DNA of 64,000 bases from a phage. Within the stretch, counting starts at the first letter, position 1, and the number at the start of each line of letters is the position of its first letter. Below the pieces are notes generated by a model. It did no database searches, was not told the origin of the DNA, and saw only the letters and a list, made by a program, of their open reading frames with translations. Positions 7,121-60,229 of this stretch are shown in pieces. Where the stretch lies: the sequence record PZ295659.1; one strand, given 5' to 3'. The position numbers and the translations under genes were made by a program.

Positions 7121-7669
7121 TTAACGAGCCCATTTGATAATTTCTGTAATCAAATTATTACGTTCGCTTGCATTAAATCCTATAACTTTGTTAGCACCAT
7201 CATGATTAAGTAATTGATACGTTTGGATTTCGTTATGAATTGCAAACTCTTCAAAATATGAAATGACTGTATTAAAACCGAACGAAGACAAAGTAATAAG
7301 GTCGTCTTCAAAACTTTCAGTCATTTCGTTACGTGTTAAAATAATTGTGAACACATCATGGTTTTGGCAAAGACGAACATAATCCTGTTCATAAACGTCA
7401 AGAACCGAGTCCGCATCTTGTCGAATACGTCCATAAACCCAGTTACTAATATATCCACGGTCTAACAGATAAATCTTAGTAGGGTCTAAATAATTCAACA
7501 TCGTTTCGAAACAGCCAACTTCATTTCGAGACTTAACATCGAAACGTCCATCAACTGTTCGTTTAGGGAAATCAATCTTTACATATCTTTCGCTAATTTC
7601 CATTATGTCATTAATGAAAGTTGTTTTACCAGCATTATCCGGGCCATCTACTAAAATAATTTTAGCCAT
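7121..7669 (-). CDS. P-loop nucleoside-monophosphate-kinase-like protein (Tmk-like)
   Basis: 182 aa; Walker A ILVDGPDNAGKTT and LLDRGYIS (DRY-like) motif of thymidylate-kinase-type kinases. Confidence 0.6.
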   Translation of the reverse strand: MAKIILVDGPDNAGKTTFINDIMEISERYVKIDFPKRTVDGRFDVKSRNEVGCFETMLNYLDPTKIYLLDRGYISNWVYGRIRQDADSVLDVYEQDYVRLCQNHDVFTIILTRNEMTESFEDDLITLSSFGFNTVISYFEEFAIHNEIQTYQLLNHDGANKVIGFNASERNNLITEIIKWAR

Positions 7670-7670
7670 T

Positions 7671-8570
7671 TTATTCCTCGATTACGACATCTTCATATTT
7701 AGGTATATTATACGGCGAAGAAATTAAAGCATTAAAGTAGATGAACTCACCAAGACCTGGATGGAATACTTCTTCAGGATTTTCGAAATATTGAATCTTC
7801 GGTCGTCCTTTAAGAATTTGATAGTACTCAGTTTTAGTTGGGTTAAAAATTCGAATCAGCGCTTCTTCAGGATACTTATTTCTGTCGAAGCTATTATTTG
7901 GATCGGTTATATAAAGCGGTTGGCCTAATTGAATTGCACATTCAACCACTTGTTCAAAACGATAACACGGGTCACTAATTCGAAATGGATGAAAAATACC
8001 ATCTAGATGAATAGGAGCCAAATCACCTACAAGACGCTGCATGATGGAAGGACGTATAACTTTCTGCGTTACGATAATCTTATTACCATCTGCACCTGCG
8101 TTAACCAGCACTTCTTTTTGACGTTCATTCAACACAGTAGTTTGAAGTGAACGATTAACCGACAACATGTCGGTTTTTAAGAATTCGTCAATATAAAAAC
8201 GTGGTTTATTAGGGTCCGCAGTGATATTGAAATTGAATTCCACATCAAAAGCGCCGTCATATCCAGTGATATCTGTGATTAGAAAATCACAATCATAATA
8301 AGCAATTAATGAATCAACCACAAATTCATTTTCAGACCAGAAATATTTACGAGTGTTATATGCGTTATCTTTATACCATAATGGAACAAACTTAAATTCT
8401 GGGAAAAGACGTTCACATTCTTTAATATCAGATGCATTACGTGGATATGTAATCACATCACCCGGATTAGCACGGTGCAAATGAAGTTGGAAGTTGCCAT
8501 CCTTAAGGATAGCATACTGTCCAGTTTCATAAGACCGCATACTCAAGATAGGTACGCGGAAAATAGCCAT
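7671..8570 (-). CDS. hypothetical protein; candidate DNA glycosyl(arabinosyl)transferase
   Basis: 299-aa ORF at the position T4 uses for beta-gt, no clear T4 bgt similarity; HPGLGEF region faintly GT-B-like. Confidence 0.5.
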   Translation of the reverse strand: MAIFRVPILSMRSYETGQYAILKDGNFQLHLHRANPGDVITYPRNASDIKECERLFPEFKFVPLWYKDNAYNTRKYFWSENEFVVDSLIAYYDCDFLITDITGYDGAFDVEFNFNITADPNKPRFYIDEFLKTDMLSVNRSLQTTVLNERQKEVLVNAGADGNKIIVTQKVIRPSIMQRLVGDLAPIHLDGIFHPFRISDPCYRFEQVVECAIQLGQPLYITDPNNSFDRNKYPEEALIRIFNPTKTEYYQILKGRPKIQYFENPEEVFHPGLGEFIYFNALISSPYNIPKYEDVVIEE

Positions 8571-9286
8571 TAGTCAAGGAATCCTTTAACATAATCAAAA
8601 TCACGTTCAAACACATGGGCACTTACCATGGTATGAGTATAATCACCAACTTCTACACCACATTCGTTAGCGATATAATGAAGTAATTTTCCTTGGAGAT
8701 AAAAATCCAACTGCATAACAACAGCACAGTTCTGAGAACGCATATGACAGTGGGTATAAAGCTTACCATCACGAATATAATAAGTCACTGAGTCAGTACA
8801 TGGATATTCAAGTGTTTCGTCCGAATCAAGCAAAGCCTGATCTGAACTTTCTAGAATTTGGAACACAACTCTTCGGGAGTTAGGCTTCTCTTTAAGTTCT
8901 TTTAGAAGAGCTGGTAATTGAGCCGCAATGCGAGGACCGTAGAAAGTGTTGAAGTTTGCAGGCAAAGCGTCTGATTTAGGTTTAGAAATAAATTTAGCGA
9001 CATTAGGATATGCCTTAAATGCTTCTTCTGCATCAGTACCACCAGAAATCATAAACTTCCAGAAGTCTTCGGCATATTCATAAGAGATGCGATTAATACG
9101 TGGATCGGTCATTTTGAATGATGAAGGGGTATCAACAACTACTGTCATAGACCCAATTTCATTACAACGTCCAATACGAGAATCAGTAACGAACTGTGGA
9201 TTTTCTAAAATTTCACGATTAACAGCTTTAAATGCGGATTGAAAATCTGCGGCTTTAATATATTTCATTGTGTTATGTTTTCCCAT
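8570..9286 (-). CDS. 42: deoxypyrimidine (dCMP) hydroxymethylase, thymidylate-synthase family
   Basis: NSRRVV, catalytic YPCTDSVTYYIRDGKL, MRSQNCAVVMQLDFY, ECGVEVGDYTHTMVSAHVFERDF align with TS/gp42 core; Asp rather than TS Asn in the pyrimidine-recognition position. Confidence 0.75.
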   Translation of the reverse strand: MGKHNTMKYIKAADFQSAFKAVNREILENPQFVTDSRIGRCNEIGSMTVVVDTPSSFKMTDPRINRISYEYAEDFWKFMISGGTDAEEAFKAYPNVAKFISKPKSDALPANFNTFYGPRIAAQLPALLKELKEKPNSRRVVFQILESSDQALLDSDETLEYPCTDSVTYYIRDGKLYTHCHMRSQNCAVVMQLDFYLQGKLLHYIANECGVEVGDYTHTMVSAHVFERDFDYVKGFLD

Positions 9287-9302
9287 GTTTACCTCAATAC
9301 AG

Positions 9303-9330
9303 TTATTATATACTCAATTCATAAAGCTTA
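9303..9330 (-). promoter_or_regulatory. possible MotA-dependent middle promoter upstream of gene 42
   Basis: Minus strand AAGCTTTA (MotA-box-like) followed ~12 bp later by TATAAT. Confidence 0.35.
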
Positions 9331-9406
9331 TTTGAATTTCTTAGCAATGTTGATATAACGTAAAGCTTCAGCATCGATACTTCCAAGAACACTATGAAGA
9401 AATGCA

Positions 9407-9568
9407 TCAGCGTAGTATTCTAGTTGAACAGGTTTCTTTAATCACTTTAGCCGCTTTAGTTTCAAACAGGCCCATAAGGGCCTTTTTAAGAATTTGTTCG
9501 TTGCTGTTAATTTTCGTAGTCAAAATCTCTTCATTAAGTTGGTGGTTAAAAGTTTTTCTAGAAATCAT
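9407..9568 (-). CDS. micro-ORF (53 aa) translationally coupled to upstream gene
   Basis: ATG overlaps stop of 386-aa gene (ATGA), GAGGT SD; MISRKTFNHQLNEEILTTKINSNEQILKKALMGLFETKAAKVIKETCSTRILR. Confidence 0.35.
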   Translation of the reverse strand: MISRKTFNHQLNEEILTTKINSNEQILKKALMGLFETKAAKVIKETCSTRILR

Positions 9569-10725
9569 TCCGGGTACCTCAAAGCGTCGTCAGAGTTAGT
9601 TATATCAATAATAGATATAGAGTTTTCTGCTAACCCATTTTTAGATAACTGACGTTTATAATATCTTTCACAATATGTACACGTCGTCCCGCAGATTTCA
9701 TTAGCACAATCGAAATCTGGATGTCTGAACCACCTTTTTTCTAAAAAGCCATCTAACAAAGAGGTTTCAATATTTACCGTATGTGAAAACTCGGTCTCAT
9801 TTTCAAGAGTGAAAATAGTCTCTAAAGGCTTCCACAATTCCAACAAATTACCTTCAAATTTTTCAGAAGCATAAGCTTCAAGAACTTTCAAAATGTAGTC
9901 TGTGCTACCTGTACGTCCTGAAACTTTGAATTGAGTGATACCAATATCATTATAAAGTTTCAAATCTTGAGGACGAACAAAACGAGTTCTCAACCAGTTA
10001 AATGGGTCTGTATCACGAGCTTTAATACAGTGTTGCATTGGATAGCCATTTAAGGATTTGGCATCATCTACTGTAACGTCGGTGCTATGGAAAATATAGC
10101 AAGAGTCACGATAGCTACAATGTGTTGTATACCCTTTACCAGCATTAGAACAGAACTCATTTACAAGAACTTCAAATATTATATTGTTCTTATTGCAAAA
10201 CTCTGCTGCACGCTTCAGGAAAGAAACTGAACGGTTCTTATGAATTCCACAGCAGACCTTTTTGATATTATATTGGTCATGCAAGTATTTGATTTGAGTT
10301 ACAGCATCGACATGTAGAATTGTTGAAACTTCAATCTCAATGTCTTTATTAACTTCACGAACAATTTCCATAACAACAGGGTTAGCGATAGTAATACGCC
10401 ATACGCCTATTGACCAAAGATACTGAACATAATCCTGAATAGCTTTCTTCTTCCACTCAACTAGTTCTCTTTTTGAACCAGGATTTATCGTGTTGAGTGT
10501 ATAGTTAAAGCAAATACCTAATTCGTTACAACGTTTAACATAATCTTCTAACATCTTTTTGTCAACGTCAGGAAGCCTAAAATCAGGTCTGGCTGCTACA
10601 AAAGCCATTTCTCTTGTAGAGCCGTATACTTCATTTATCAAGCTATTAGGATAAGTTTTATTGAGCTCTACGATTTTATCAAGAAGAGCTAAATCAAAAT
10701 TCGTTCCGATTTTAAAAGTATTCAT
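9565..10725 (-). CDS. Cys-rich enzyme of unknown function (U32-like layout, C-terminal CX4CX3CX2C cluster)
   Basis: 386 aa; N-terminal region resembles peptidase-U32-type TIM-barrel proteins; C-terminal CANEICGTTCTYC; several central Cys. Confidence 0.5.
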   Translation of the reverse strand: MNTFKIGTNFDLALLDKIVELNKTYPNSLINEVYGSTREMAFVAARPDFRLPDVDKKMLEDYVKRCNELGICFNYTLNTINPGSKRELVEWKKKAIQDYVQYLWSIGVWRITIANPVVMEIVREVNKDIEIEVSTILHVDAVTQIKYLHDQYNIKKVCCGIHKNRSVSFLKRAAEFCNKNNIIFEVLVNEFCSNAGKGYTTHCSYRDSCYIFHSTDVTVDDAKSLNGYPMQHCIKARDTDPFNWLRTRFVRPQDLKLYNDIGITQFKVSGRTGSTDYILKVLEAYASEKFEGNLLELWKPLETIFTLENETEFSHTVNIETSLLDGFLEKRWFRHPDFDCANEICGTTCTYCERYYKRQLSKNGLAENSISIIDITNSDDALRYPE

Positions 10726-10779
10726 TTTTACATCTCGCGTTAATTGATGCGATGGTTTTTGCAGGTCTTACTTAAATTA

Positions 10780-11181
10780 TTATAGATTCGGTTTATATGA
10801 TTTAAATGTTTCGAATTCGCCTTTATTCATAAGAGCTTTGAATTCGTCAGGACGCATAGCTTTGTCGTCGATAATCCAATCATATACTGGTTTATGTGTT
10901 AGCAAATTATGGTACTTCAAGCCAATGTTTGCCAAGTTCTGAATCAGACTTGGGAGAATGTCAATTGCTATACGACCAGGACCTACTGACTTCATACCGC
11001 GAGCAGTGTAAAGCGTTATTGTATGCCCTGCATCATACAGGGCATTAATGGCAGACACCATTTCGACGTCTGGTTTGAAGTTCACGTAATCACGATTGTT
11101 ATTCCACTCGGTTATACAATCATCGACATCAAAACAAAGATTAAGCATGTTTTCTACACGGTGCATTAGATTCGTTCCCAT
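10780..11181 (-). CDS. HAD-superfamily phosphatase-like protein
   Basis: 133 aa; motif I FDVDDCIT, motif II LYTAR, motif IV IIDDK. Confidence 0.6.
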   Translation of the reverse strand: MGTNLMHRVENMLNLCFDVDDCITEWNNNRDYVNFKPDVEMVSAINALYDAGHTITLYTARGMKSVGPGRIAIDILPSLIQNLANIGLKYHNLLTHKPVYDWIIDDKAMRPDEFKALMNKGEFETFKSYKPNL

Positions 11182-12851
11182 TGATGAGTGATATCGCCAC
11201 CGATTGGACGATAGGAAACACCAGTTTCTTTATCAGTTAGTACCCATTTACCAGGATTTTTTGTAATCAGAGTAGCCGTTACAGGTTCTGCTACGTCATA
11301 ACTAATAGAGCCGTCTTGAAGTACACGGCCCATGTTACGTAATTGCTTAGTCAGAAGTTCCATACCTTTATAATATGCGGCTACCGCTTTAAGTGGATTA
11401 TTCTTGAAATAACCACCTAATGCAATCCAGATAATTGCTACAGCCAAATGATGATACTCGTTAAACGAACTCATCTTTCCATATTTGTAAACTAATGGAT
11501 TGATGTTAATAGTCACATTACAAGTTGTTTCATCAATAGTAAACTGACCCCAGGTCGGATTAGCGTTGAATTCATCATAACCTGAAACAGCGTAAAGCAC
11601 TTTAGCTTCATCATACAATTTTGGCCCGTAAATCTTGGTTTCACCAAAATATCCACGAGGGTCGATAAACTTGACTTCACCATTATCAGTAATCATAGTA
11701 TTACTGAAGTTCGGGTCACCATGAATAACAGAGTACTGTCCCTGAGAACGGTTATGATAACGAATAAGGTGTTCTAAAGCTTGTTTCAACATTGGCTTCA
11801 GACGTCCAATCTTAGTGTAGTTCACATGTGTGATTTTACCAAATGAATCAATCAATGGTTGAATACTTTCACAACGATCAATAACTTTCGTATAGAATTC
11901 TTTAGTGAAATCACGACGAACAGTTTCAGGACTTACAAAATAAGTGTCTGTGCTGAATTTCAGTGCATCTAAAATTGCATCAACAATTTGTGGACGAGCA
12001 AGACTCGATTTGGATTTAATATATTCAAATGCCGGCTTACCTTTAATGCGTTCCATTTCAAAGTTATTTTCATTAACAGAAACTAACTGAGGAACTGAAT
12101 CTGATTTCACTTTAAGATACCATGAAATCTCATCTTTCTGAAGAGCTCGACCCTGTTCGGTTAATGCGAATTTAGTTACAGTTTCTTCACCAATTTCAAC
12201 TGCATTAAAACTACGATTAAGTTCACGAACTTCATGAGCTTTTTCAAGTTTAGGCATATCACCTAAATCAATTAGATTCATAAGCTCTGATTTATTGAAT
12301 GCGCTGCCGTAAAGGAATTCTACGAAATCACGCCCTTTGCAGTATTCATGAATTTCCTCATCAGTAGAACCCATATAGAATTCCCAGTCTTTGAACTGAT
12401 AAATTCCTACAACATTACCACCTGTTGAACCTACGTTAGTGATATTTTCACCGTCGAAATTATATCGACATTCGTCACCCTTAACATAGATTGCGTTAAC
12501 ATTCCAAGACCATGAACCAAAATCAGGAATAATATCGCACCAGTTAACAATTACATTATGGCTGTCTAAATCTTTGTGTAATTTAGCAAGAGCATAAGCA
12601 GAACCATACGCTTCATCAACTGTACGAATAGTCACATTGAACCCTTCTTGCTCACAATAAGCTCGAACAGTTTCAGCAAATTTTGAATGAACTACTACAA
12701 TAATTTCATCTGCGCCAAGGTCAGAATAAATTGTATACAAATTGCTCAGAATAGTGTCTTGTTTATAGTTAACAAGCACCTTAGGAATATGATGCGTTAT
12801 TGGATACAAACGAGTTGCCAGTCCAGCACCAAGAATAACAGCTTTTTTCAT
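11166..12851 (-). CDS. bifunctional sugar-1-phosphate nucleotidyltransferase / APH-family anomeric sugar kinase
   Basis: 561 aa; N-terminal VILGAGLATRLYPIT (G-x-G-T-R-L NTase motif); C-terminal VIHGDPNFSN...KFIDPRG (Brenner motif and DxG of choline/aminoglycoside kinase fold). Confidence 0.8.
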   Translation of the reverse strand: MKKAVILGAGLATRLYPITHHIPKVLVNYKQDTILSNLYTIYSDLGADEIIVVVHSKFAETVRAYCEQEGFNVTIRTVDEAYGSAYALAKLHKDLDSHNVIVNWCDIIPDFGSWSWNVNAIYVKGDECRYNFDGENITNVGSTGGNVVGIYQFKDWEFYMGSTDEEIHEYCKGRDFVEFLYGSAFNKSELMNLIDLGDMPKLEKAHEVRELNRSFNAVEIGEETVTKFALTEQGRALQKDEISWYLKVKSDSVPQLVSVNENNFEMERIKGKPAFEYIKSKSSLARPQIVDAILDALKFSTDTYFVSPETVRRDFTKEFYTKVIDRCESIQPLIDSFGKITHVNYTKIGRLKPMLKQALEHLIRYHNRSQGQYSVIHGDPNFSNTMITDNGEVKFIDPRGYFGETKIYGPKLYDEAKVLYAVSGYDEFNANPTWGQFTIDETTCNVTININPLVYKYGKMSSFNEYHHLAVAIIWIALGGYFKNNPLKAVAAYYKGMELLTKQLRNMGRVLQDGSISYDVAEPVTATLITKNPGKWVLTDKETGVSYRPIGGDITHQWERI

Positions 12852-12892
12852 GTTGTGGTCCTCATTGGTAAGTAGGAGTATTGTACACTATT

Positions 12893-13036
12893 CTAGTTAA
12901 AGCATTCATACTTTGCTTGTAGTCCAATCATAATCCATCCGATTACAAGTGTTGGAATCATTACTGGAGCCGTTAAGCTCCAGTAGATAGTCATGACAAG
13001 CATCAATAGTAAAAGTCCTATTGTTATTGCTTTCAT
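12893..13036 (-). CDS. micro-ORF encoding 47-aa hydrophobic peptide
   Basis: ATG overlaps stop of SIS gene (ATGA); MKAITIGLLLLMLVMTIYWSLTAPVMIPTLVIGWIMIGLQAKYECFN; followed by GAGGA SD of NTase/kinase gene. Confidence 0.4.
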   Translation of the reverse strand: MKAITIGLLLLMLVMTIYWSLTAPVMIPTLVIGWIMIGLQAKYECFN

Positions 13037-13668
13037 TGTTCGCCTCGTAACATGGCACCTAGTGCACCGCCAGGGTGGAACTTAAGGAAGTCATTAGAGG
13101 TAAATCCACGTTCAGACGAAAGGTTGATAGCAAACGTATCGATAAGCGCTAACAACAATGTAGTGGACATGGTCGGAGCCAGAGAATTCTCATCAACCTC
13201 TACTGCGATGCCTGTACAGAACGTATAATCAAAAAGAGCTTCATATTCTTGTGGAATGTCTGGGTTACAATGCAACAGAATCTGTTTGACGTTCGGACGA
13301 ATCATTTTAAGATGCTTAGCCACGCCTATCATTTCTTCAGTTTTACCAGAACGACTAATATGAATCAACACATCATTAGGCGCAATGAATCCTGCATCAC
13401 CGTGAGAATAATGCCCGGTGTTCAAGTACATACTAGGGATACCGAGTGAAGCAAATGTTTCAGAAGCTTTAGTTGCAATATTAGCATTCTTACCAACACC
13501 TGTAATAATTACTCGGCTTTCATAATTACTAAGCCCTGGGCGTCGAAGAGTTTCTAGAATAGCATTATAACGAGCAGGGTTTTGACTAATTACTTTGGCC
13601 ATAGCGGCCAAAGAAGAAGCTTGTTTTATGATTGCGTCAATAGCGATAGTAATAGGAGTAGTTTTCAT
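13033..13668 (-). CDS. D-arabinose-5-phosphate isomerase (KdsD/GutQ-like, SIS domain only)
   Basis: 211 aa; IITGVGKNANIATKASETFASLGIPSMYLNTGHYSHGDAG parallels KdsD GMGKSGHIG.K.AATFASTGTPSFF.HPGEASHGDLG. Confidence 0.8.
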   Translation of the reverse strand: MKTTPITIAIDAIIKQASSLAAMAKVISQNPARYNAILETLRRPGLSNYESRVIITGVGKNANIATKASETFASLGIPSMYLNTGHYSHGDAGFIAPNDVLIHISRSGKTEEMIGVAKHLKMIRPNVKQILLHCNPDIPQEYEALFDYTFCTGIAVEVDENSLAPTMSTTLLLALIDTFAINLSSERGFTSNDFLKFHPGGALGAMLRGEQ

Positions 13669-27109: not shown

Positions 27110-27431
27110 AATCTTCTATAATATCAGAGTCATATCCTAATGAAATCAAGGACTTTTTAAACTCTGCAATATTCTTTTGTTTCTTATCATTTAAAAATAT
27201 GACAGGATAACGAATATTAAGTGAAGTGAATCCTGCACGTTTAGCAAGAGATACGATTAAAGGACGGTCATATTCAATCTTACCATTATTAGTGAGGACT
27301 TTATAAAATGTATAAGGAGCATTGAGCTCCTTTAAAAGTTTTGTAACAGTATAACATCCCGGACAACGTCCTACTTCTTCAGGGATGCCGTAAATTTCAA
27401 TCTTATTCTTTAAGTTCGAGTTTTGTTCCAC
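27108..27431 (-). CDS. nrdH: glutaredoxin-like protein NrdH
   Basis: ...IEIYGIPEEVGRCPGCYTVTKLL... CPGC redox motif; start set at GTG 27431 with AAGGAA SD (track ORF extends to 27560). Confidence 0.6.
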   Translation of the reverse strand: MEQNSNLKNKIEIYGIPEEVGRCPGCYTVTKLLKELNAPYTFYKVLTNNGKIEYDRPLIVSLAKRAGFTSLNIRYPVIFLNDKKQKNIAEFKKSLISLGYDSDIIED

Positions 27432-27714
27432 GAGAAATAATTCCTTGGTAAGCCCAATAAGGAGGATTAACAGAATCCTCGCCAGAGTTTTCTTCAGGAA
27501 AATAAACCTGGATAACAAATCCAGATTCATCAAAGGTAAAATAAACTGTAGGCAGTTCACCTAACAATTCGGCACGAGCATTAATTTCTTCGAGATCTCG
27601 TTCACGTCCAGCCCAAAAACTAGGATTTAGATTACATTCGTAAAAATAATAGTCATTACCGAACATATCAAAACCTTTCCAACTCTCTACCACATACCGC
27701 TCAAAACTAATCAT
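27403..27714 (-). CDS. hypothetical protein
   Basis: 103-aa ORF. Confidence 0.5.
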   Translation of the reverse strand: MISFERYVVESWKGFDMFGNDYYFYECNLNPSFWAGRERDLEEINARAELLGELPTVYFTFDESGFVIQVYFPEENSGEDSVNPPYWAYQGIISRGTKLELKE

Positions 27715-47094: not shown

Positions 47095-47424
47095 TTATAC
47101 TCTAGGCTTTTGAGCTTGTTTGGTATTGGATTCCCATGCGGCTTTGGTAATTTTGTTAGCGGCATAACCAAAGGCACTAGATAGAACACCTTTAGAGTTG
47201 AATACATCCAATCCAATAAGTACACCGGCTGTGTTAAATTTAGGAGCAAAGTACGCATTAGTTTTAGAAAGAGCTTTTTTCAATTCAGGGTCTTGAACCA
47301 AGCCATCAAAAACGCCTTTACTATTTACTTTATATGTTACTTTGGGATTTTTAGCTTCTTCGATAGCAGCTTTCTGTTCCGCAGATAATGTAACTTCAGT
47401 GATAAACTCTTGATATGTTTTCAT
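47095..47424 (-). CDS. internal-protein-like (Ip) with capsid targeting sequence
   Basis: N-terminus MKTYQEFITE matches T4 internal protein CTS (MKTYQEFIAEA) with LxE-type gp21 cleavage context. Confidence 0.65.
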   Translation of the reverse strand: MKTYQEFITEVTLSAEQKAAIEEAKNPKVTYKVNSKGVFDGLVQDPELKKALSKTNAYFAPKFNTAGVLIGLDVFNSKGVLSSAFGYAANKITKAAWESNTKQAQKPRV

Positions 47425-47465
47425 ATGTTTCCTTTAAATGTAAATAGGCCTAAGTATAGGCCTTA

Positions 47466-48044
47466 TTAATTACCACGGGCTGCATTAGCAACGGCATAAG
47501 CGTACTGAACATTAGCGTCTTTAAACGTACCTTTAGAGGTATCTATTTCTGCCTTAAAGCCGCCTTTAGCCATAACATCGGCAAATTCTTTACGGAAAGC
47601 CATTGCATCAAGACCTTTCCATGATGATTTGTGCTTGGCGAATTCAAGACCAGCGTAGTTGACAGCCTTAGCTAATTTATTATCAATAACCCATTTACCG
47701 GCTTTAGGCACAAACTTCGGGCCTTTTTGTTTAGAGAACAGTTTTAAATTCCAGCGACGAAGATCACTGTCGGCTTTAACAAAAGCTGCGTCTAAGTTAC
47801 TAGCAACAACATCTTCAATATGAGCAAATTTAAGTCCGTCAACTTCAATATTTAGATCGTTACGCCAGCGAAGTCCTTCCCAAGCGAAGGCTTTAAAATC
47901 AGAAGCTTTTGTGGCTAGATATCGTTCAATTGGAGCAGTTTTAGGGTCAAAGCCGTTTCCACCACGATAAGTCCACTCGTCCTTATTAATGCCTTGAGCT
48001 TTTCCTGCAAAGGCCTCGGCGATAAATTCTTTATACGTTTTCAT
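47466..48044 (-). CDS. internal-protein-like (Ip) with capsid targeting sequence
   Basis: N-terminus MKTYKEFIAEA; 192 aa. Confidence 0.65.
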   Translation of the reverse strand: MKTYKEFIAEAFAGKAQGINKDEWTYRGGNGFDPKTAPIERYLATKASDFKAFAWEGLRWRNDLNIEVDGLKFAHIEDVVASNLDAAFVKADSDLRRWNLKLFSKQKGPKFVPKAGKWVIDNKLAKAVNYAGLEFAKHKSSWKGLDAMAFRKEFADVMAKGGFKAEIDTSKGTFKDANVQYAYAVANAARGN

Positions 48045-48169
48045 TTTTGTTTCCTTGTTTGTTTTGATAGAGTAATTATACCATATTAATACTTAAGCGT
48101 AAACTGTTTAAGCTTTACCGCCGGAAATAATTCCGAAGTTGTTAAAATCGTATCCAATATCGTCAACAT

Positions 48170-48367
48170 CTACTTTAGGCTTGCTACAACATAAGCAATT
48201 TCACTACGTTTTGCATAGGTGTTGATTTCTTTACCATCGCCACCTAAGAAAAAATACCCATTACGTTTTAATGAGCCAAAGTCTTCCGCATCACCAATGA
48301 AAGCTTTAACTTTAAATTTAGGACCTTTGGCATCTGCTTCAGCGATAAATTCTTGATACATTTTCAT
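48170..48367 (-). CDS. internal-protein-like (Ip) with capsid targeting sequence
   Basis: N-terminus MKMYQEFIAEA; 65 aa. Confidence 0.55.
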   Translation of the reverse strand: MKMYQEFIAEADAKGPKFKVKAFIGDAEDFGSLKRNGYFFLGGDGKEINTYAKRSEIAYVVASLK

Positions 48368-48373
48368 TTTTCC

Positions 48374-48787
48374 TTAGTAAATTGATTTACCATAGTATTT
48401 GTACCAAGTAGGACGTTGAGCAATTTTTTCATCTAAGCGTGCTTGACTTATCGCAATGGACGCTTCTGACGGGACATAATTATTACGAAATTCGGCAGGG
48501 ATGTCAGAAATATCCTGAACAGTCGTGTCCTTGATTTTGAAACCACGTTTCAAGCATTCAGCGATTAGCTCGATTTGTCGTAAACGTAAAAATTCGAGTT
48601 TGTCGTAAAAGAATGTTACGTGACCTGTGCCTAAGATAAATGTTGGAGAGATTTTAAAATCCTTTACACGTTTACCGTTTTGAACATGTTTACGGACCGC
48701 ACCAAATACGCGTGGTAATTCACGATACTCAGCCATAAGATGTTGGTCGGTCAGTTCAGAAACAAGTGTTAAATTGATACGAGTCAT
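48374..48787 (-). CDS. denV: endonuclease V (pyrimidine dimer DNA glycosylase) DenV
   Basis: [35 protein letters not shown]... colinear with T4 DenV; start at ATG 48787. Confidence 0.9.
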
Positions 48788-48794
48788 AATTTCC

Positions 48795-48844
48795 TCCAAG
48801 TAGTTGATGAATGTATAGTATCAAAGTCCTTGGAGGAAGTAAAC
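48795..48844 (-). promoter_or_regulatory. early promoter stem-loop (PeSL) upstream of denV
   Basis: inverted repeat cctccaag.../...cttggagg, gtaaac at 48839-48844. Confidence 0.45.
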
Positions 48845-48845
48845 A

Positions 48846-49127
48846 CTATTTTTCTGAAGCGCCCGAAATATATTTTTCAAGACGTTGTTTCATCAGCGAA
48901 CCGTTCTTGGCGATTTCTTCCGGTTTATCACACATACGCAACAAGGCTTCAAGCTTAACGATATCACTGGTACGTTCAAATTTGCGAGTATCTATCTTAC
49001 TAGCAAGTTCAGAAATACGTGCTAATAGACTTTCAGCTTCAACCAAAGCTGCACCTAGCTTAGTTGCAAATGTGTCAGTAGCTTCGTTAAGAATAGATTC
49101 TGATAAAAATTCACTATATGTTTTCAT
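48846..49127 (-). CDS. internal-protein-like (Ip) with capsid targeting sequence
   Basis: [11 protein letters not shown]-terminus; ATG overlaps stop of lysozyme gene. Confidence 0.6.
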
Positions 49128-49612
49128 ATATACGCTTTCCAAGTTCCTGTTTTAAATGTTGAGATTACGCGTTTCGCACGATTAGGTGTCTGACGATACC
49201 ATTTAGATTGGGCTAGATTTACTGCCGCTTCGTCCCAACGTTTCTGTTGAAGCATACGAAGAGAATTAGTAAAACCAGCGACGCCTGCTACACCCATTTG
49301 GAAGACCATATTAACCAATGCACATCGACGAACTGCATCTAAAGAATCATATACCGGTTTAAGTTTAGCATTACCCAAGATTCCGCGAACGGCTTTATCA
49401 ACGTCTTCATTAAATAGCTTTTCGGCCTCATCAAGGGTAATTGTACCGTTGCATTTACGTCCGATCATTCTGTCAAGTTCAGCTTTAGCTACGGCTAAAG
49501 ACGGGTTCTTTGTTACTAAATGACCTATGCCAATCGTCCAAAAGCCTTCAGTGTCTTTGTATAAAGTCAGTCTAAGACCTTCGTCATTACGAAGCATTTC
49601 AAATATATTCAT
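49124..49612 (-). CDS. e: lysozyme (endolysin) E
   Basis: [32 protein letters not shown]... catalytic E11/D20/T26 context as T4 lysozyme. Confidence 0.95.
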
Positions 49613-56840: not shown

Positions 56841-57404
56841 TTATTTACCTAGTTTAGTTATTATAGCTTCGGCAGCAGCTTTTAGCTTAGATGCAGTGTT
56901 AATACGATTTTTAATTTCAGTATACGCATCGCCAAGAACATCAAGGCTATCAGAATAAACACTTACACTATTGCGTTCGCTATTTGAAATAGAACCTTTA
57001 GTTTTACGATCAAAATCAGTGTACACGTCTTGAAGATCACGGGCTGCCTTCTTTGCATCATCCAATGCATCAAGAGCTTTATTCAAAGCATTGACATATT
57101 TTTTAGTGTCAAACATATTCTTAGAAATTTTAACAGGTGCACGTTCAGGAGTAGCTAAGGCGGATTTAGGAACCTGCGTGCCAGATGCCAGTTTCTTAGA
57201 AATTTTGAAAAACGCTTTATTGAAACTATTTTCTTGACTCATCGTAAAAGAACTAGTATCGATGTTATACATTTCAATAGCTTTAGCTTTCCACTTAAGA
57301 AAATCGCCACGGTCTTTTGGATCCAAGTGGAAGAATACTTTAGTAAGATCTGCTTCAGATGGTAATTTTGCTGCTTCTGTTAAAAATTCGGCATAGGTTT
57401 TCAT
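56841..57404 (-). CDS. internal-protein-like (Ip) with capsid targeting sequence
   Basis: N-terminus MKTYAEFLTEA; 187 aa. Confidence 0.6.
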   Translation of the reverse strand: MKTYAEFLTEAAKLPSEADLTKVFFHLDPKDRGDFLKWKAKAIEMYNIDTSSFTMSQENSFNKAFFKISKKLASGTQVPKSALATPERAPVKISKNMFDTKKYVNALNKALDALDDAKKAARDLQDVYTDFDRKTKGSISNSERNSVSVYSDSLDVLGDAYTEIKNRINTASKLKAAAEAIITKLGK

Positions 57405-57492
57405 TTAAAATCCTTGAAATAATTTATCGGTTTGTTATTAATTATTTATTACTTTGGTATTATTAGTAACAGCATTCTCTGAGTGATTCAAA

Positions 57493-57521
57493 CTAAAAAG
57501 CCCCAACCTTTCGGAAGGGGC
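57493..57521 (-). terminator. rho-independent terminator (copy 2 of repeated hairpin)
   Basis: Same GCCCCUUCCGAAAGGUUGGGGC + U-tract as 41387-41416. Confidence 0.55.
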
Positions 57522-57833
57522 TAAGCCTTGCGGCAACCTTGTCGGGGTTCCACCTGCTAAGGCAAGTGTTTGTACGAAACGCCGGGATTCGAACCCGGTT
57601 ATTAAGCAGTTGACGCTACTCAATATTTTTAAAAGGCCATATCTCGACCATATCCGAACGTTCCGTCAAAAACGCTACTCGGCTTACGGCAAAGATATTT
57701 CCTCGAATCGATAATTCTGTGCGCCGTTTCTGCTGTGATGTAAGGGGATATTAACAAATCATAAAGATTTATTAAGACCAGTCCTTACGCAGGGAACATC
57801 AGTCCGACGACTTACCGGTAGCGACCCGGCTTC
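57522..57833 (-). ncRNA. possible small stable RNA / degenerate tRNA region
   Basis: ~310 nt without convincing ORF, relatively GC-rich, canonical T-arm CCGGG-TTCGAAT-CCCGG (plus 57582-57598) but no full cloverleaf found; ends at a terminator. Confidence 0.25.
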
Positions 57834-58178
57834 TTATTTTGGCATATCATCAATTTGCTCTCGACGCCGACGCCATAGATTAATCGCTTCATTAGCACAT
57901 TCGGCGTTTGGTATATGGCGGCAATAATATAATGATTCGCGTTTCTGGAACCGATGTTGCAACGGGATTTCGTTTAAAAGGTCTTTACGGTCAAAGTATT
58001 CAAAACTAGTTAACCCGGAACGATTTTTAAGGAACTTCCAATGGCCGAATTCATTTTGAACATAGATGTAATCTGCATGTTGGTATAACAAATTAATCAA
58101 TCGGTCTGAAATAACTGTATCATATTCGTTAAAATAAAACGTTAAATCATGAACTACCAGATAAATATTGCCTTTCAT
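57834..58178 (-). CDS. hypothetical protein
   Basis: Track ORF trimmed to ATG 58178 to avoid overlapping tRNA. Confidence 0.45.
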   Translation of the reverse strand: MKGNIYLVVHDLTFYFNEYDTVISDRLINLLYQHADYIYVQNEFGHWKFLKNRSGLTSFEYFDRKDLLNEIPLQHRFQKRESLYYCRHIPNAECANEAINLWRRRREQIDDMPK

Positions 58179-58196: not shown

Positions 58197-58273
<77 letters not shown>

Positions 58274-58279
58274 AATATA

Positions 58280-58353
58280 TGACCCAGACCAGATTCGAAC
58301 TGGTAACCTTTCCCTTATGAGGGGACTGCTGCTAACCGTTGAGCTACAGGGCC
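58280..58353 (-). tRNA. tRNA with anticodon CAU (Ile2 or Met)
   Basis: Acceptor GGCCCTG/CTGGGTC (one U-U mismatch), T-arm ACCAG-TTCGAAT-CTGGT, anticodon loop CTCATAA; D-stem weak. Confidence 0.5.
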
Positions 58354-59877: not shown

Positions 59878-60165
59878 TTACAGAAGAGTTTTTGCAATAA
59901 TTTTAAGCTGAGCTACAGAAATATGCTTAGCTTTAAACAGTGCAGTCTCTTCAGCCGGAGAGATAACAATAGTAGCGCCATCTTTCTTAGCAGACCATCC
60001 ATCCCCTAAGTAAACAGTACCTTTTACTTCTTCGCCGTCAACCAGACTAATCATTGGTTTACCCTCGCGTCCTTTATTTGCTTTAATAACTTCAGAAGTA
60101 AGGGTTGCTTCGGTCAGAGTAGAAACGTTAGCAACAGGTGATATAAATTCTTTAAATGTTTTCAT
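59878..60165 (-). CDS. internal-protein-like (Ip) at the ipI locus next to 57B
   Basis: N-terminus MKTFKEFISP...LTEA; sits where T4 carries ipI. Confidence 0.55.
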   Translation of the reverse strand: MKTFKEFISPVANVSTLTEATLTSEVIKANKGREGKPMISLVDGEEVKGTVYLGDGWSAKKDGATIVISPAEETALFKAKHISVAQLKIIAKTLL

Positions 60166-60189
60166 TTTATTTCCTTGAGGTCGTTTATT

Positions 60190-60229
60190 TGATAGGATGA
60201 TAGTAACACACCATCATCCTTATGTAAAC
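60190..60229 (-). promoter_or_regulatory. early promoter stem-loop (PeSL)
   Basis: gataggatgatagtaacacaccatcatcc, gtaaac at 60224-60229. Confidence 0.5.

Follow-up and report, generated by a model that had tools for sequence, protein, structure and literature searches.

The internal proteins of T-even phages that carry a capsid targeting sequence (CTS) at the N-terminus form an injected anti-restriction class that is already well described and belongs to textbook T4 biology. IpI is said to have been presented as an anti-restriction internal protein by Bair and Black in 2007, and Repoila reportedly described the genes ip4-10 of T-even phages in 1994. The proteins Ip4-Ip10 of other T-even phages (e.g. 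T2 Ip4, Ip5 and Ip7) were found via the tag; they have the same leader as the genes studied here and occupy the same two loci, and their cargo is non-homologous.

Mutagenesis of T4 IpIII has assigned packaging to residues 4 and 7 of the tag, and cleavage by the prohead protease gp21 to residues 8 and 10 (PMC9026906). In T4, the first 10 residues alone suffice to package foreign proteins (PMC3012670, PMC9026906). As for the targets of these proteins, mature T4 IPI* inhibits GmrSD (PMC3012670), while the targets of T4 Ip2 and Ip3 are two distinct GmrSD enzymes, neither protein protecting against the target of the other (Silas 2025, PMC12373910). Ip3 inhibits the two-gene GmrSD (GmrS1/GmrSD2) of strain ECOR17 (PMC12373910), a strain whose infection requires IpIII and in which IpIII without its CTS is effective as well. 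The published specificity of internal proteins is for variants of the host nuclease, and not for the sugar on the DNA (PMC12373910). When ip4-10 were tried against five further active GmrSD systems, no reproducible inhibition was found (Silas et al., PMC12373910). Phage P1 provides a parallel, in that its Dar anti-restriction proteins are likewise head-packaged and enter the cell together with the DNA (PMC12810830); the Dar proteins are unrelated in sequence to the set described here, are incorporated by another mechanism, and lack the MKTYxEF leader.

Results

Six genes carry the capsid targeting sequence

We analysed a stretch of 64,000 nucleotides (the window) from an RB69-type phage (Mosigvirus), in which the RB69 cytosine-arabinosylation cluster is present at 99% amino-acid identity or more. 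The genes for gp21 and for the scaffolding core protein gp22 fall outside the window, but the phage is expected to encode both, since the window matches RB69-group genomes at 95-99% identity. The original prediction was that six ORFs begin with MKT[YF]x[EK]F[IL] followed by an acidic residue. All six are real, lie on the minus strand and stand at the coordinates it gave (Table 1), with the correction that the third begins MKM rather than MKT. The acidic residue falls at position 10, one residue beyond the motif, and it is Glu in five of the ORFs and is replaced by Pro in IpI.

Table 1. Coordinates of the six tag-bearing genes in the window, with predicted mature products and matches to PHROG families
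Feature	Product	Coordinates	Strand	N-terminus	Predicted mature form	PHROG match
CTS-bearing gene, RB69ORF123c family	109 aa	47095..47424	-	MKTYQEFITE, then V	99 aa, pI 9.7	phrog_3966 'unknown function', 1e-31
ipIII ortholog (T4 IpIII orthology)	192 aa	47466..48044	-	MKTYKEFIAE	182 aa, pI 9.6	phrog_5341 'internal virion protein', 8e-118
Frameshifted gene, RB69ORF125c family	65 aa (open part 48170-48367)	48108..48367	-	MKMYQEFIAE		phrog_2667 'internal head protein', 1e-15
CTS-bearing gene, RB69ORF127c family	93 aa	48846..49127	-	ten-residue tag, cleavage predicted before S	83 aa, pI 6.3	phrog_3499 'internal head protein', 1e-46
CTS-bearing gene, RB14ncORF136c / RB69ORF148c+149c family	187 aa	56841..57404	-	MKTYAEFLTE, then A	177 aa, pI 9.5	phrog_2280 'unknown function', 2e-53
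ipI ortholog	95 aa	59878..60165	-	MKTFKEFISP	IPI*, 76 aa

The start MK[T/M][Y/F]x[E/K]F[I/L] occurs in 6 ORFs of the window and in none across 200 shuffles of it. A looser pattern, MK.[YF]..F[ILV], found no ORF beyond the six in any of the six frames of the window, and a very loose one added two ORFs, both unconvincing. The ORF at 27403-27714 (MISFERYVVE), whose support is the very relaxed pattern alone, was rejected as a CTS gene.

That the shared N-terminus is the T4 CTS, as had been proposed, is borne out by the residues that mutagenesis had defined and by the direct orthology of two of the ORFs to T4 IpIII and IpI. Both packaging determinants are kept in all six (Tyr or Phe at position 4, Phe at position 7), as is Ile or Leu at position 8. 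The predicted gp21 site that ends the propeptide, (I/L)-x-E, is I/L8-x-E10 in five proteins and L17-T-E19 in IpI. Moreover, the codons of the tag vary synonymously among the six genes (ACA/ACG/ACC, GAA/GAG), and the tag is kept in homologs whose cargo part is only 31-36% identical, which points to selection acting on the peptide. The predicted mature forms are basic in five of the six (pI 9.0-9.7), as in T4 IpI-III, the exception being the RB69ORF127c-family product. T4 Ip2, the BrxU / ECOR21 GmrSD inhibitor, has the same CTS and is likewise small and basic.

Upstream of the six genes we found no canonical T4 late promoter (TATAAATA); a sigma-70-like promoter of the ipIII ortholog lies at 48103-48075. 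Searches of Pfam and NCBIfam returned no family other than IPI_T4, and sequence searches of the PDB returned no entry other than 2JUB, in both cases for IpI. Literature searches on the RB69/RB14 ORF names and on virion proteomics of RB69-like phages gave nothing usable, and direct evidence on the virion location or N-terminal processing of the four proteins that are not T4 orthologs was not found.

Two genes are orthologs of T4 ipIII and ipI

Over its full length, the ipIII product shares 93% of its residues with T4 IpIII (178/192, no gaps), and its 10-residue CTS is the same. By this orthology it should block ECOR17-type two-gene GmrSD.

The ipI product matches Pfam IPI_T4 (PF11634) over residues 20-95 at 1e-50 (169.7 bits against a cut-off of 25; profile positions 1-76 of 76), and the same residues align with PDB 2JUB, 'Internal protein I', at E = 6e-42. 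The structure begins at residue 20, and the predicted cleavage at LTE (residues 17-19) is that of T4 IpI. T4 IPI is 89% identical to the protein found here and equal in length; both have a 19-residue propeptide that ends in (L/I)TE, and four substitutions separate them in the mature part. The protein is closer still to RB69 IpI, with 94 of 95 residues identical and the mature part fully so. GmrSD-family enzymes cut RB69-type DNA, a restriction that RB69 IpI reportedly prevents (PMC6024577, PMC13390438). Orthology again shows the likely target: the IpI encoded here should block CT596-type GmrSD.

An ortholog of ipII is absent from the window; Ip2 aligns with the RB69ORF125c-family product over 11 N-terminal residues only.

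Four genes carry other cargo

The family to which the RB69ORF125c-type gene belongs is named 'internal head protein' in RefSeq, as are copies 100% identical to the RB69ORF127c-family gene. The mechanical ORF of the latter begins at a TTG at 49142; in relatives, the start is annotated at the ATG at 49127, which overlaps the stop codon of the lysozyme gene e (ATGA). The product of this RB69ORF127c-family gene aligns across 90% of its length with Ip5 of T2 and PP01, at 47.6-51.2% identity and E values of about 1e-14 to 1e-17, and, on the strength of this similarity, is a distant relative of Ip5.

The remaining two families stand without such a name in the databases. Relatives of the RB69ORF123c-family gene were found by tblastn in 91 phage records and those of the RB14ncORF136c-family gene in 165, and the annotation is 'hypothetical' in 91/91 and 165/165. 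Neither gene bears an Ip name in the database records examined. The RB69ORF123c-family product has weak matches, confined to the CTS, with the internal-protein families phrog_2667 and phrog_7857, and its homolog in Dhakavirus WG01, 36% identical, retains the tag as MKTYQQFITE. For the RB14ncORF136c-family product, an exhaustive search with HMMER through 1.8 billion representatives returned T-even-type phages only, together with one 31% homolog that starts MITFNEFLNE. Because the two families lack diverse homologs, AlphaFold2 was run on single sequences, and the models (pLDDT 45.0 for the former; mean pLDDT 62.8 and pTM 0.31 for the latter) were too poor for any binding mode.

The genes occupy three sites and behave as exchangeable cassettes

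The original prediction called this an expanded set of divergent cargo proteins. The set is indeed expanded relative to T4, which has three such genes, but it is ordinary within RB69-like phages, where six or seven are usual: the six of this window recur in phiC120, and RB69 has seven. Similarly, divergence does not describe IpIII and IpI, and one of the genes is frameshifted.

Five of the six genes lie in the two ip loci (the denV-e region and beside 57B). The RB14ncORF136c-family gene differs from Ip4-Ip10 in occupying a third site, bounded by e.8 and the rnaC/tRNA region, where it falls within a 697-nt insertion relative to T4. The position of ipIII differs as well: here it is downstream of denV and flanked by two other ip cassettes, whereas in T4 it adjoins gene e. 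RB69 has an unrelated gene, ORF124c, at this site. The swap between the two has one limit at 48016 of the window, where the CTS ends, 29 nt inside the coding sequence, and the other at 47433. The window lacks the RB69ORF156c cassette, and the junction falls within a 55-nt leader-plus-CTS repeat. Judging from these junctions, the ip genes behave as exchangeable cassettes, which would be swapped, gained and lost at the repeated segment that holds the ribosome-binding site and encodes the CTS.

The leader occurs on other cargo in environmental phages

A scan of IMG/VR for the leader gave at least 120 loci and at least 145 tagged ORFs; clustering the cargo parts by sequence gave at least 72 clusters. 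Among the matches listed, many loci have T4-like replication genes as neighbours. Some of the tagged ORFs carry enzyme domains, namely S-adenosylmethionine lyase and cytidylyltransferase-like domains, and DUF6267 occurs as well. CTS-like variants were also seen on ADP-ribosyltransferases.

Discussion

The six genes are, very probably, the ip genes of an RB69-type T-even phage, encoding CTS-tagged nuclease inhibitors that are packaged in the head and injected. During prohead assembly, the CTS would bind each protein to the scaffolding core, so that many copies are enclosed in the head. There gp21 would cut after the Glu of (I/L)-x-E, at residue 10 in five proteins and at residue 19 in IpI, and the mature, mostly basic protein would stay with the packaged DNA and enter the cell along with it. 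Once inside, it would block stoichiometrically, before phage gene expression, a host nuclease that attacks DNA with sugar-modified cytosine. From their tags we infer that the RB69ORF123c-, RB69ORF125c-, RB69ORF127c- and RB14ncORF136c-family products are packaged and injected likewise, and that, most likely, they inhibit further first-line defences. GmrSD-family type IV enzymes are the leading candidate targets of these four; since the screen of ip4-10 was negative, a GmrSD target for internal proteins other than those of T4 is an extrapolation.

The reading of the set as injected anti-defence factors agrees with the literature on T-even internal proteins as diverse injected anti-restriction factors (PMC3012670, PMC12373910). 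One part of it finds no support: the proteins had been proposed to be matched to this phage's own DNA modification. IpI, IpIII and the RB69ORF127c and RB14ncORF136c families are common to arabinosyl Mosigvirus and glucosyl-hmC Tequatrovirus. Since most of the families thus occur in glucosyl-hmC phages too, we reject a tuning of the set to arabinosylated DNA.

It is important to ask whether the four proteins have specific targets at all, and whether they reach the virion. They might be packaged mainly as basic DNA counterions or head-packing proteins, with no specific anti-defence target. The mature forms are mostly lysine-rich and basic, solid-state NMR has found that T4 internal proteins contact DNA phosphates through their lysines (PMC3012670), and ip4-10 gave no reproducible inhibition of the GmrSD systems tried. 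We nevertheless consider this improbable: all three T4 internal proteins examined are specific nuclease inhibitors (PMC12373910), the RB69ORF127c-family product is near neutral, and a role in packing DNA leaves the rapid turnover of cassettes and their non-homologous cargo unexplained. Far less probable again is that the common N-terminus is a mere recombination or translation-initiation module and that the non-T4 products stay outside the virion. As such a module would predict, the DNA of leader and CTS is repeated and has cassette junctions inside it, but the peptide is conserved in spite of synonymous codon differences and in homologs of such low identity, and ten residues are enough for packaging in T4. 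A more serious contender, which we regard as possible but not favoured, keeps injection and anti-defence and directs some of the proteins beyond GmrSD-type IV nucleases, e.g. at modified-cytosine glycosylases or other early-acting systems. It would account for the negative screen of ip4-10 on additional GmrSD systems; DNA glycosylases and other systems reportedly act against hypermodified T-even DNA; and distant T4-like contigs bear the same leader on SAM lyase and nucleotidyltransferase domains. Against it, all three characterised internal proteins act on GmrSD-family enzymes, and in the view of Silas et al. the two ip loci are both aimed at variants of that family (PMC12373910).

A separate matter is whether the set is whole. 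Alignment with phage SQ17 places a 1-nt deletion (CCC to CC) near 48179 in the RB69ORF125c-family gene, which shortens the product from 86 to 65 aa; in comparison with SQ17 and RB69, the last 21 residues are lost, their 21 codons running on in another frame to 48108. The frameshift was found in no other record, nor does any phage record contain a match of 99% or more to the 65-aa product; the frameshift is thus either peculiar to this genome or an error of sequencing. This copy is probably disabled, to judge from the reading frame. Decay would have a precedent in RB69, whose own copy of the RB14ncORF136c family is frameshifted and split into ORF148c and ORF149c. The first 63 residues of the shortened product, including the CTS, are intact, however, and could still be packaged, and an error in the CC/CCC run is possible. 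We therefore hold it an even question whether the set is partly decaying, with a pseudogene at 48170-48367 (or an assembly error in its place) and a working set of five.

The preferred reading, that of injected nuclease inhibitors, has a small practical gain: two families, in 91 and 165 phages, could exchange the label 'hypothetical' for that of putative internal protein. In addition, the RB14ncORF136c family marks a third ip site, and the RB69ORF125c-family copy is revealed as frameshifted. Since known targets are limited to IpI, Ip2 and Ip3, the uncharacterised CTS families are ready candidate inhibitors with a simple assay. The phage's opening move against nucleases able to recognise its modified DNA is made with these injected proteins. 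More tentatively, the MKT[Y/F]xEF[I/L]xE leader may mark cargo for injection throughout the T4 superfamily instead of being an oddity of a few small T-even proteins, a reading for which the IMG/VR scan gives support, with the RB69ORF123c and RB14ncORF136c families as further first-strike inhibitors of non-GmrSD targets. If this were true, it would mean that environmental T4-like phages practise an injected, enzymatic counter-defence.

Six tagged genes in the window

An ORF listing of 45-62 kb, together with a six-frame scan of the window, recovers the same six ORFs that the original prediction had named as bearing the capsid targeting sequence (CTS) of T4 internal proteins (Ip). All six lie on the minus strand, and their ten-residue tags begin MK[T/M][Y/F]x[E/K]F[I/L]. 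When the window was shuffled 200 times the motif did not appear once, and relaxing the pattern adds no copies in the six frames of the whole window. The predicted form of the tag must be amended in two respects. Five ORFs start with MKT as claimed, but the third (48170-48367) begins MKM; and the acidic residue, said to follow the motif directly, is found at position 10, except in 59878-60165, which has proline there and an LTE site at residues 17-19 instead.

CTS-bearing genes of the window and related loci elsewhere
Feature	Location	Strand	Product or N-terminus
CTS ORF	47095-47424	minus	109 aa, MKTYQEFITE
CTS ORF	47466-48044	minus	192 aa, MKTYKEFIAE
CTS ORF	48170-48367	minus	65 aa, MKMYQEFIAE
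CTS ORF	48846-49127	minus	93 aa
CTS ORF	56841-57404	minus	187 aa, MKTYAEFLTE
CTS ORF	59878-60165	minus	95 aa, MKTFKEFISP
Example leader-bearing loci (L008-L127, from IMG/VR)	L127 8480-9337; L067; L086; L054; L059
ADP-ribosyltransferase genes (ART-PolyVal, ADPrib_exo_Tox), CTS-like leaders	L006 1419-2033, 2092-2526; L127 9501-10310, 10721-11578

Since the CTS residues are kept, two of the genes are orthologs of IpI and IpIII, and others have named relatives, the reading of these genes as T-even internal proteins is essentially right. It repeats established T-even biology, reportedly described in Repoila 1994, Bair & Black 2007, Rifat 2008 and Srikant 2022. Silas 2025 is likewise prior work on these proteins. 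What is new is minor: two CTS families that public records leave unannotated, of which one occupies a third locus; a frameshift peculiar to this genome in one ip copy; and explicit cassette junctions inside the CTS.

Conservation of the tag

In T4, the CTS steers internal proteins into the prohead core and gp21 cuts the tag off; about a thousand internal-protein molecules remain with the DNA and are injected together with it (PMC3012670, PMC9026906, PMC7697877). The first ten residues suffice for the packaging of foreign proteins (PMC9026906, PMC3012670, PMC7697877), and mutagenesis of T4 IpIII shows that packaging depends on residues 4 and 7, and cleavage on residues 8 and 10 (PMC9026906). 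These determinants are kept in the six ORFs, save for Pro10 in 59878-60165. The CTS codons vary synonymously between the six genes, and the tag persists in distant homologs: a WG01 protein with only 36% overall identity to the 47095 product yet begins MKTYQQFITE, and the sole remote homolog found for the 56841 protein (31% identity) begins MITFNEFLNE. As these synonymous differences and distant homologs show, conservation of the CTS acts on the peptide, beyond the DNA alone. Of the predicted mature proteins, five have a basic pI (9.0-9.7), as T4 IpI-III do; that of 48846 is near neutral.

Identity of the six proteins

The gene at 47466-48044 is the IpIII ortholog, with 93% gap-free identity to the T4 protein. 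IpI has its ortholog at 59878-60165, whose product matches Pfam IPI_T4 (1e-50, residues 20-95), is 89% identical to T4 IpI, and agrees with RB69 IpI at 94 of 95 residues, the mature parts being identical. PDB 2JUB aligns from residue 20 of this product onward, and the mature N-terminus is thereby fixed.

Two of the remaining four proteins belong to families named 'internal head protein'. The 48846-49127 product (phrog_3499; identical RefSeq copies bear the same name) shares 48-51% identity with the Ip5 proteins of T2 and PP01. The gene's ATG and the stop codon of lysozyme gene e have bases in common (ATGA, 49124-49127), an overlap that suggests translational coupling to e rather than an independent ribosome-binding site. 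In RB69ORF127c (L003 2423-2704) the leader is scrambled (MKTYMNFYQNLSLNE) relative to this gene and the remainder is identical, a pattern that hints at compensating frameshifts within the CTS of the RB69 reference sequence. The 48170-48367 product belongs to phrog_2667, the RB69ORF125c family; within 48108-48367, a 1-nt deletion near 48179 (CCC to CC) shortens an 86-aa protein to 65 aa. The gene occurs in 205 phage records, and since the deletion is absent from every one of them, it is either an error of sequencing or a mutation private to this genome.

The other two families are of 'unknown function': 47095-47424 (RB69ORF123c family, phrog_3966) is a 'hypothetical protein' in 91 of 91 phage records, and 56841-57404 (RB14ncORF136c family, phrog_2280; divided into ORF148c/149c in RB69) is 'hypothetical' in 165 of 165. 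The phiC120 RefSeq record has the same six genes, naming four as internal virion/head proteins and two as hypothetical. Searches of Pfam, NCBIfam and PDB with the four non-T4 proteins gave no matches, and AlphaFold2 on single sequences gave poor models. All six ip genes lack a canonical late promoter in their upstream DNA, and the literature yielded no proteomic evidence on these ip families.

Genome setting and cassette exchange

The ip region is 96-98% identical to RB69-group phages of the genus Mosigvirus (SQ17, phi25-307, phiC120, PhAPEC2, RB69), in the T4-type order vs.8, ip genes, denV, ip gene, e, nudE, e.2-e.8, tRNAs, trna.2-4, ipI, 57B, 57A, gene 1. In comparison with T4, e.8 and rnaC are separated by an insertion of 697 nt, and the 56841 gene lies in it. 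The stretch 57492-57839 is 92% identical to the T4 rnaC/rnaD region (species 1 and 2 stable RNA) and has no Rfam family match; the small ORFs 57438-57623 and 57629-57757 are probably spurious. Only two tRNAs follow (Arg-UCU and Met-CAU, 58197-58353), as in RB69, versus eight in T4.

At the site of IpIII in the window, RB69 carries the unrelated ORF124c. Homology to RB69 breaks off at 48016, where the CTS ends 29 nt from the start of the coding sequence, and is restored at 47433, which is 9 nt upstream of the following CTS gene. RB69ORF156c is absent from the ipI locus, the junction lying within a 55-nt segment (60143-60197; 32 nt of leader and 23 nt of CTS) matched by each of the two copies in RB69; SQ17, the best match at the denV-e locus, carries a different pair of CTS genes at ipI. 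These breakpoints with RB69 (48016-48044, 47425-47433, 60143-60197) fall in or beside CTS-coding or leader DNA, and this repeat of about 30-55 nt looks like a recombination joint for the swap, gain and loss of ip cassettes. Cassette exchange in agreement with such joints was reportedly described by Repoila et al. 1994 and Comeau et al. 2007. The swapped cassette also contains a GC-rich hairpin with a perfect 7-bp stem (AGGCCTA...TAGGCCT, 47446-47463) and a T-rich tail; it is placed between ipIII and the 47095 gene and is terminator-like on either strand.

Repertoire, DNA modification and probable anti-defence role

The set had been called expanded and matched to the phage's DNA modification; the first description holds only relative to T4, and the second is not supported. 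By the strict motif in fetched loci, T4 has three CTS genes, T2 two (three with the annotated ip5, whose leader differs), SQ17 six, and RB69 six (seven with ORF127c, whose leader has diverged); WG01 has at least four in one locus. Given these counts and the same six genes in phiC120, six is above T4's three but ordinary for Mosigvirus.

The window holds a complete RB69-type cytosine-modification cluster (7124-13617; ORF045c-ORF055c homologs at ≥99% amino-acid identity), which encodes a thymidylate-synthase-family enzyme, a GutQ-like isomerase and an NTP-transferase and includes sugar-nucleotide genes. The RB69 annotation of the matching interval shows neither a-gt nor b-gt of the T4 type. The cluster identifies the phage as a Mosigvirus of the arabinosyl-cytosine type. 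The Mosigvirus modification, arabinosylated cytosine, was first described as arabinosyl-hmC (PMC6024577); a later revision gives mono- and di-arabinosylated 5-hydroxycytosine instead (PMC13390438). The IpI, IpIII, 48846 and 56841 families are common to these phages and to the glucosyl-hmC Tequatrovirus.

IPI* inhibits the GmrSD type IV enzyme from strain CT596 (PMC3012670). IpIII is needed for growth on strain ECOR17, where a host-expressed CTS-less form also works. Ip2 and Ip3 each inhibit a different GmrSD variant without cross-protection, and both ip loci were proposed to be hotspots of GmrSD inhibitors; when ip4-10 were tried against five more GmrSD systems, no inhibition could be reproduced (Silas et al. 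2025, PMC12373910). GmrSD-family enzymes act on RB69-type DNA, and RB69 IpI is reported to be protective (PMC6024577, PMC13390438). By orthology, IpI and IpIII of the window phage would counter GmrSD likewise; for the other four genes we infer packaging, processing and an anti-defence role. As judged from its distribution, the ip repertoire tracks host nuclease diversity, not the sugar.

The leader in environmental contigs

A scan of IMG/VR with a degenerate DNA pattern of the CTS leader matches at least 120 loci (chance expectation below one, by a rough estimate), with at least 145 tagged ORFs in at least 72 cargo clusters, so that the leader is widespread among T4-like viral contigs from the environment. 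In 45 loci among the matches listed, the neighbouring genes are distantly related to T4 genes for replication and recombination. Cargo domains include an S-AdoMet lyase (above the Pfam cut-off), a cytidylyltransferase-like domain and DUF6267, with weak GNAT and PARP-like matches as well. Other genes on the S-AdoMet lyase contig are those for T4 RNase H and PhoH, a denV-like gene, and a pair of ADP-ribosyltransferase genes whose leaders are degenerate. In L006 and L127, both distant T4-like contigs, the ADP-ribosyltransferase leaders read MITFKQFLNE, MKSFKKFVAD and MLTFKSYLNE; in L006, one such gene adjoins the remote homolog of the 56841 protein. The breadth of these loci and their enzyme-domain cargos suggest that the CTS tag is in use far beyond the T-even phages, and that it may deliver enzymes.
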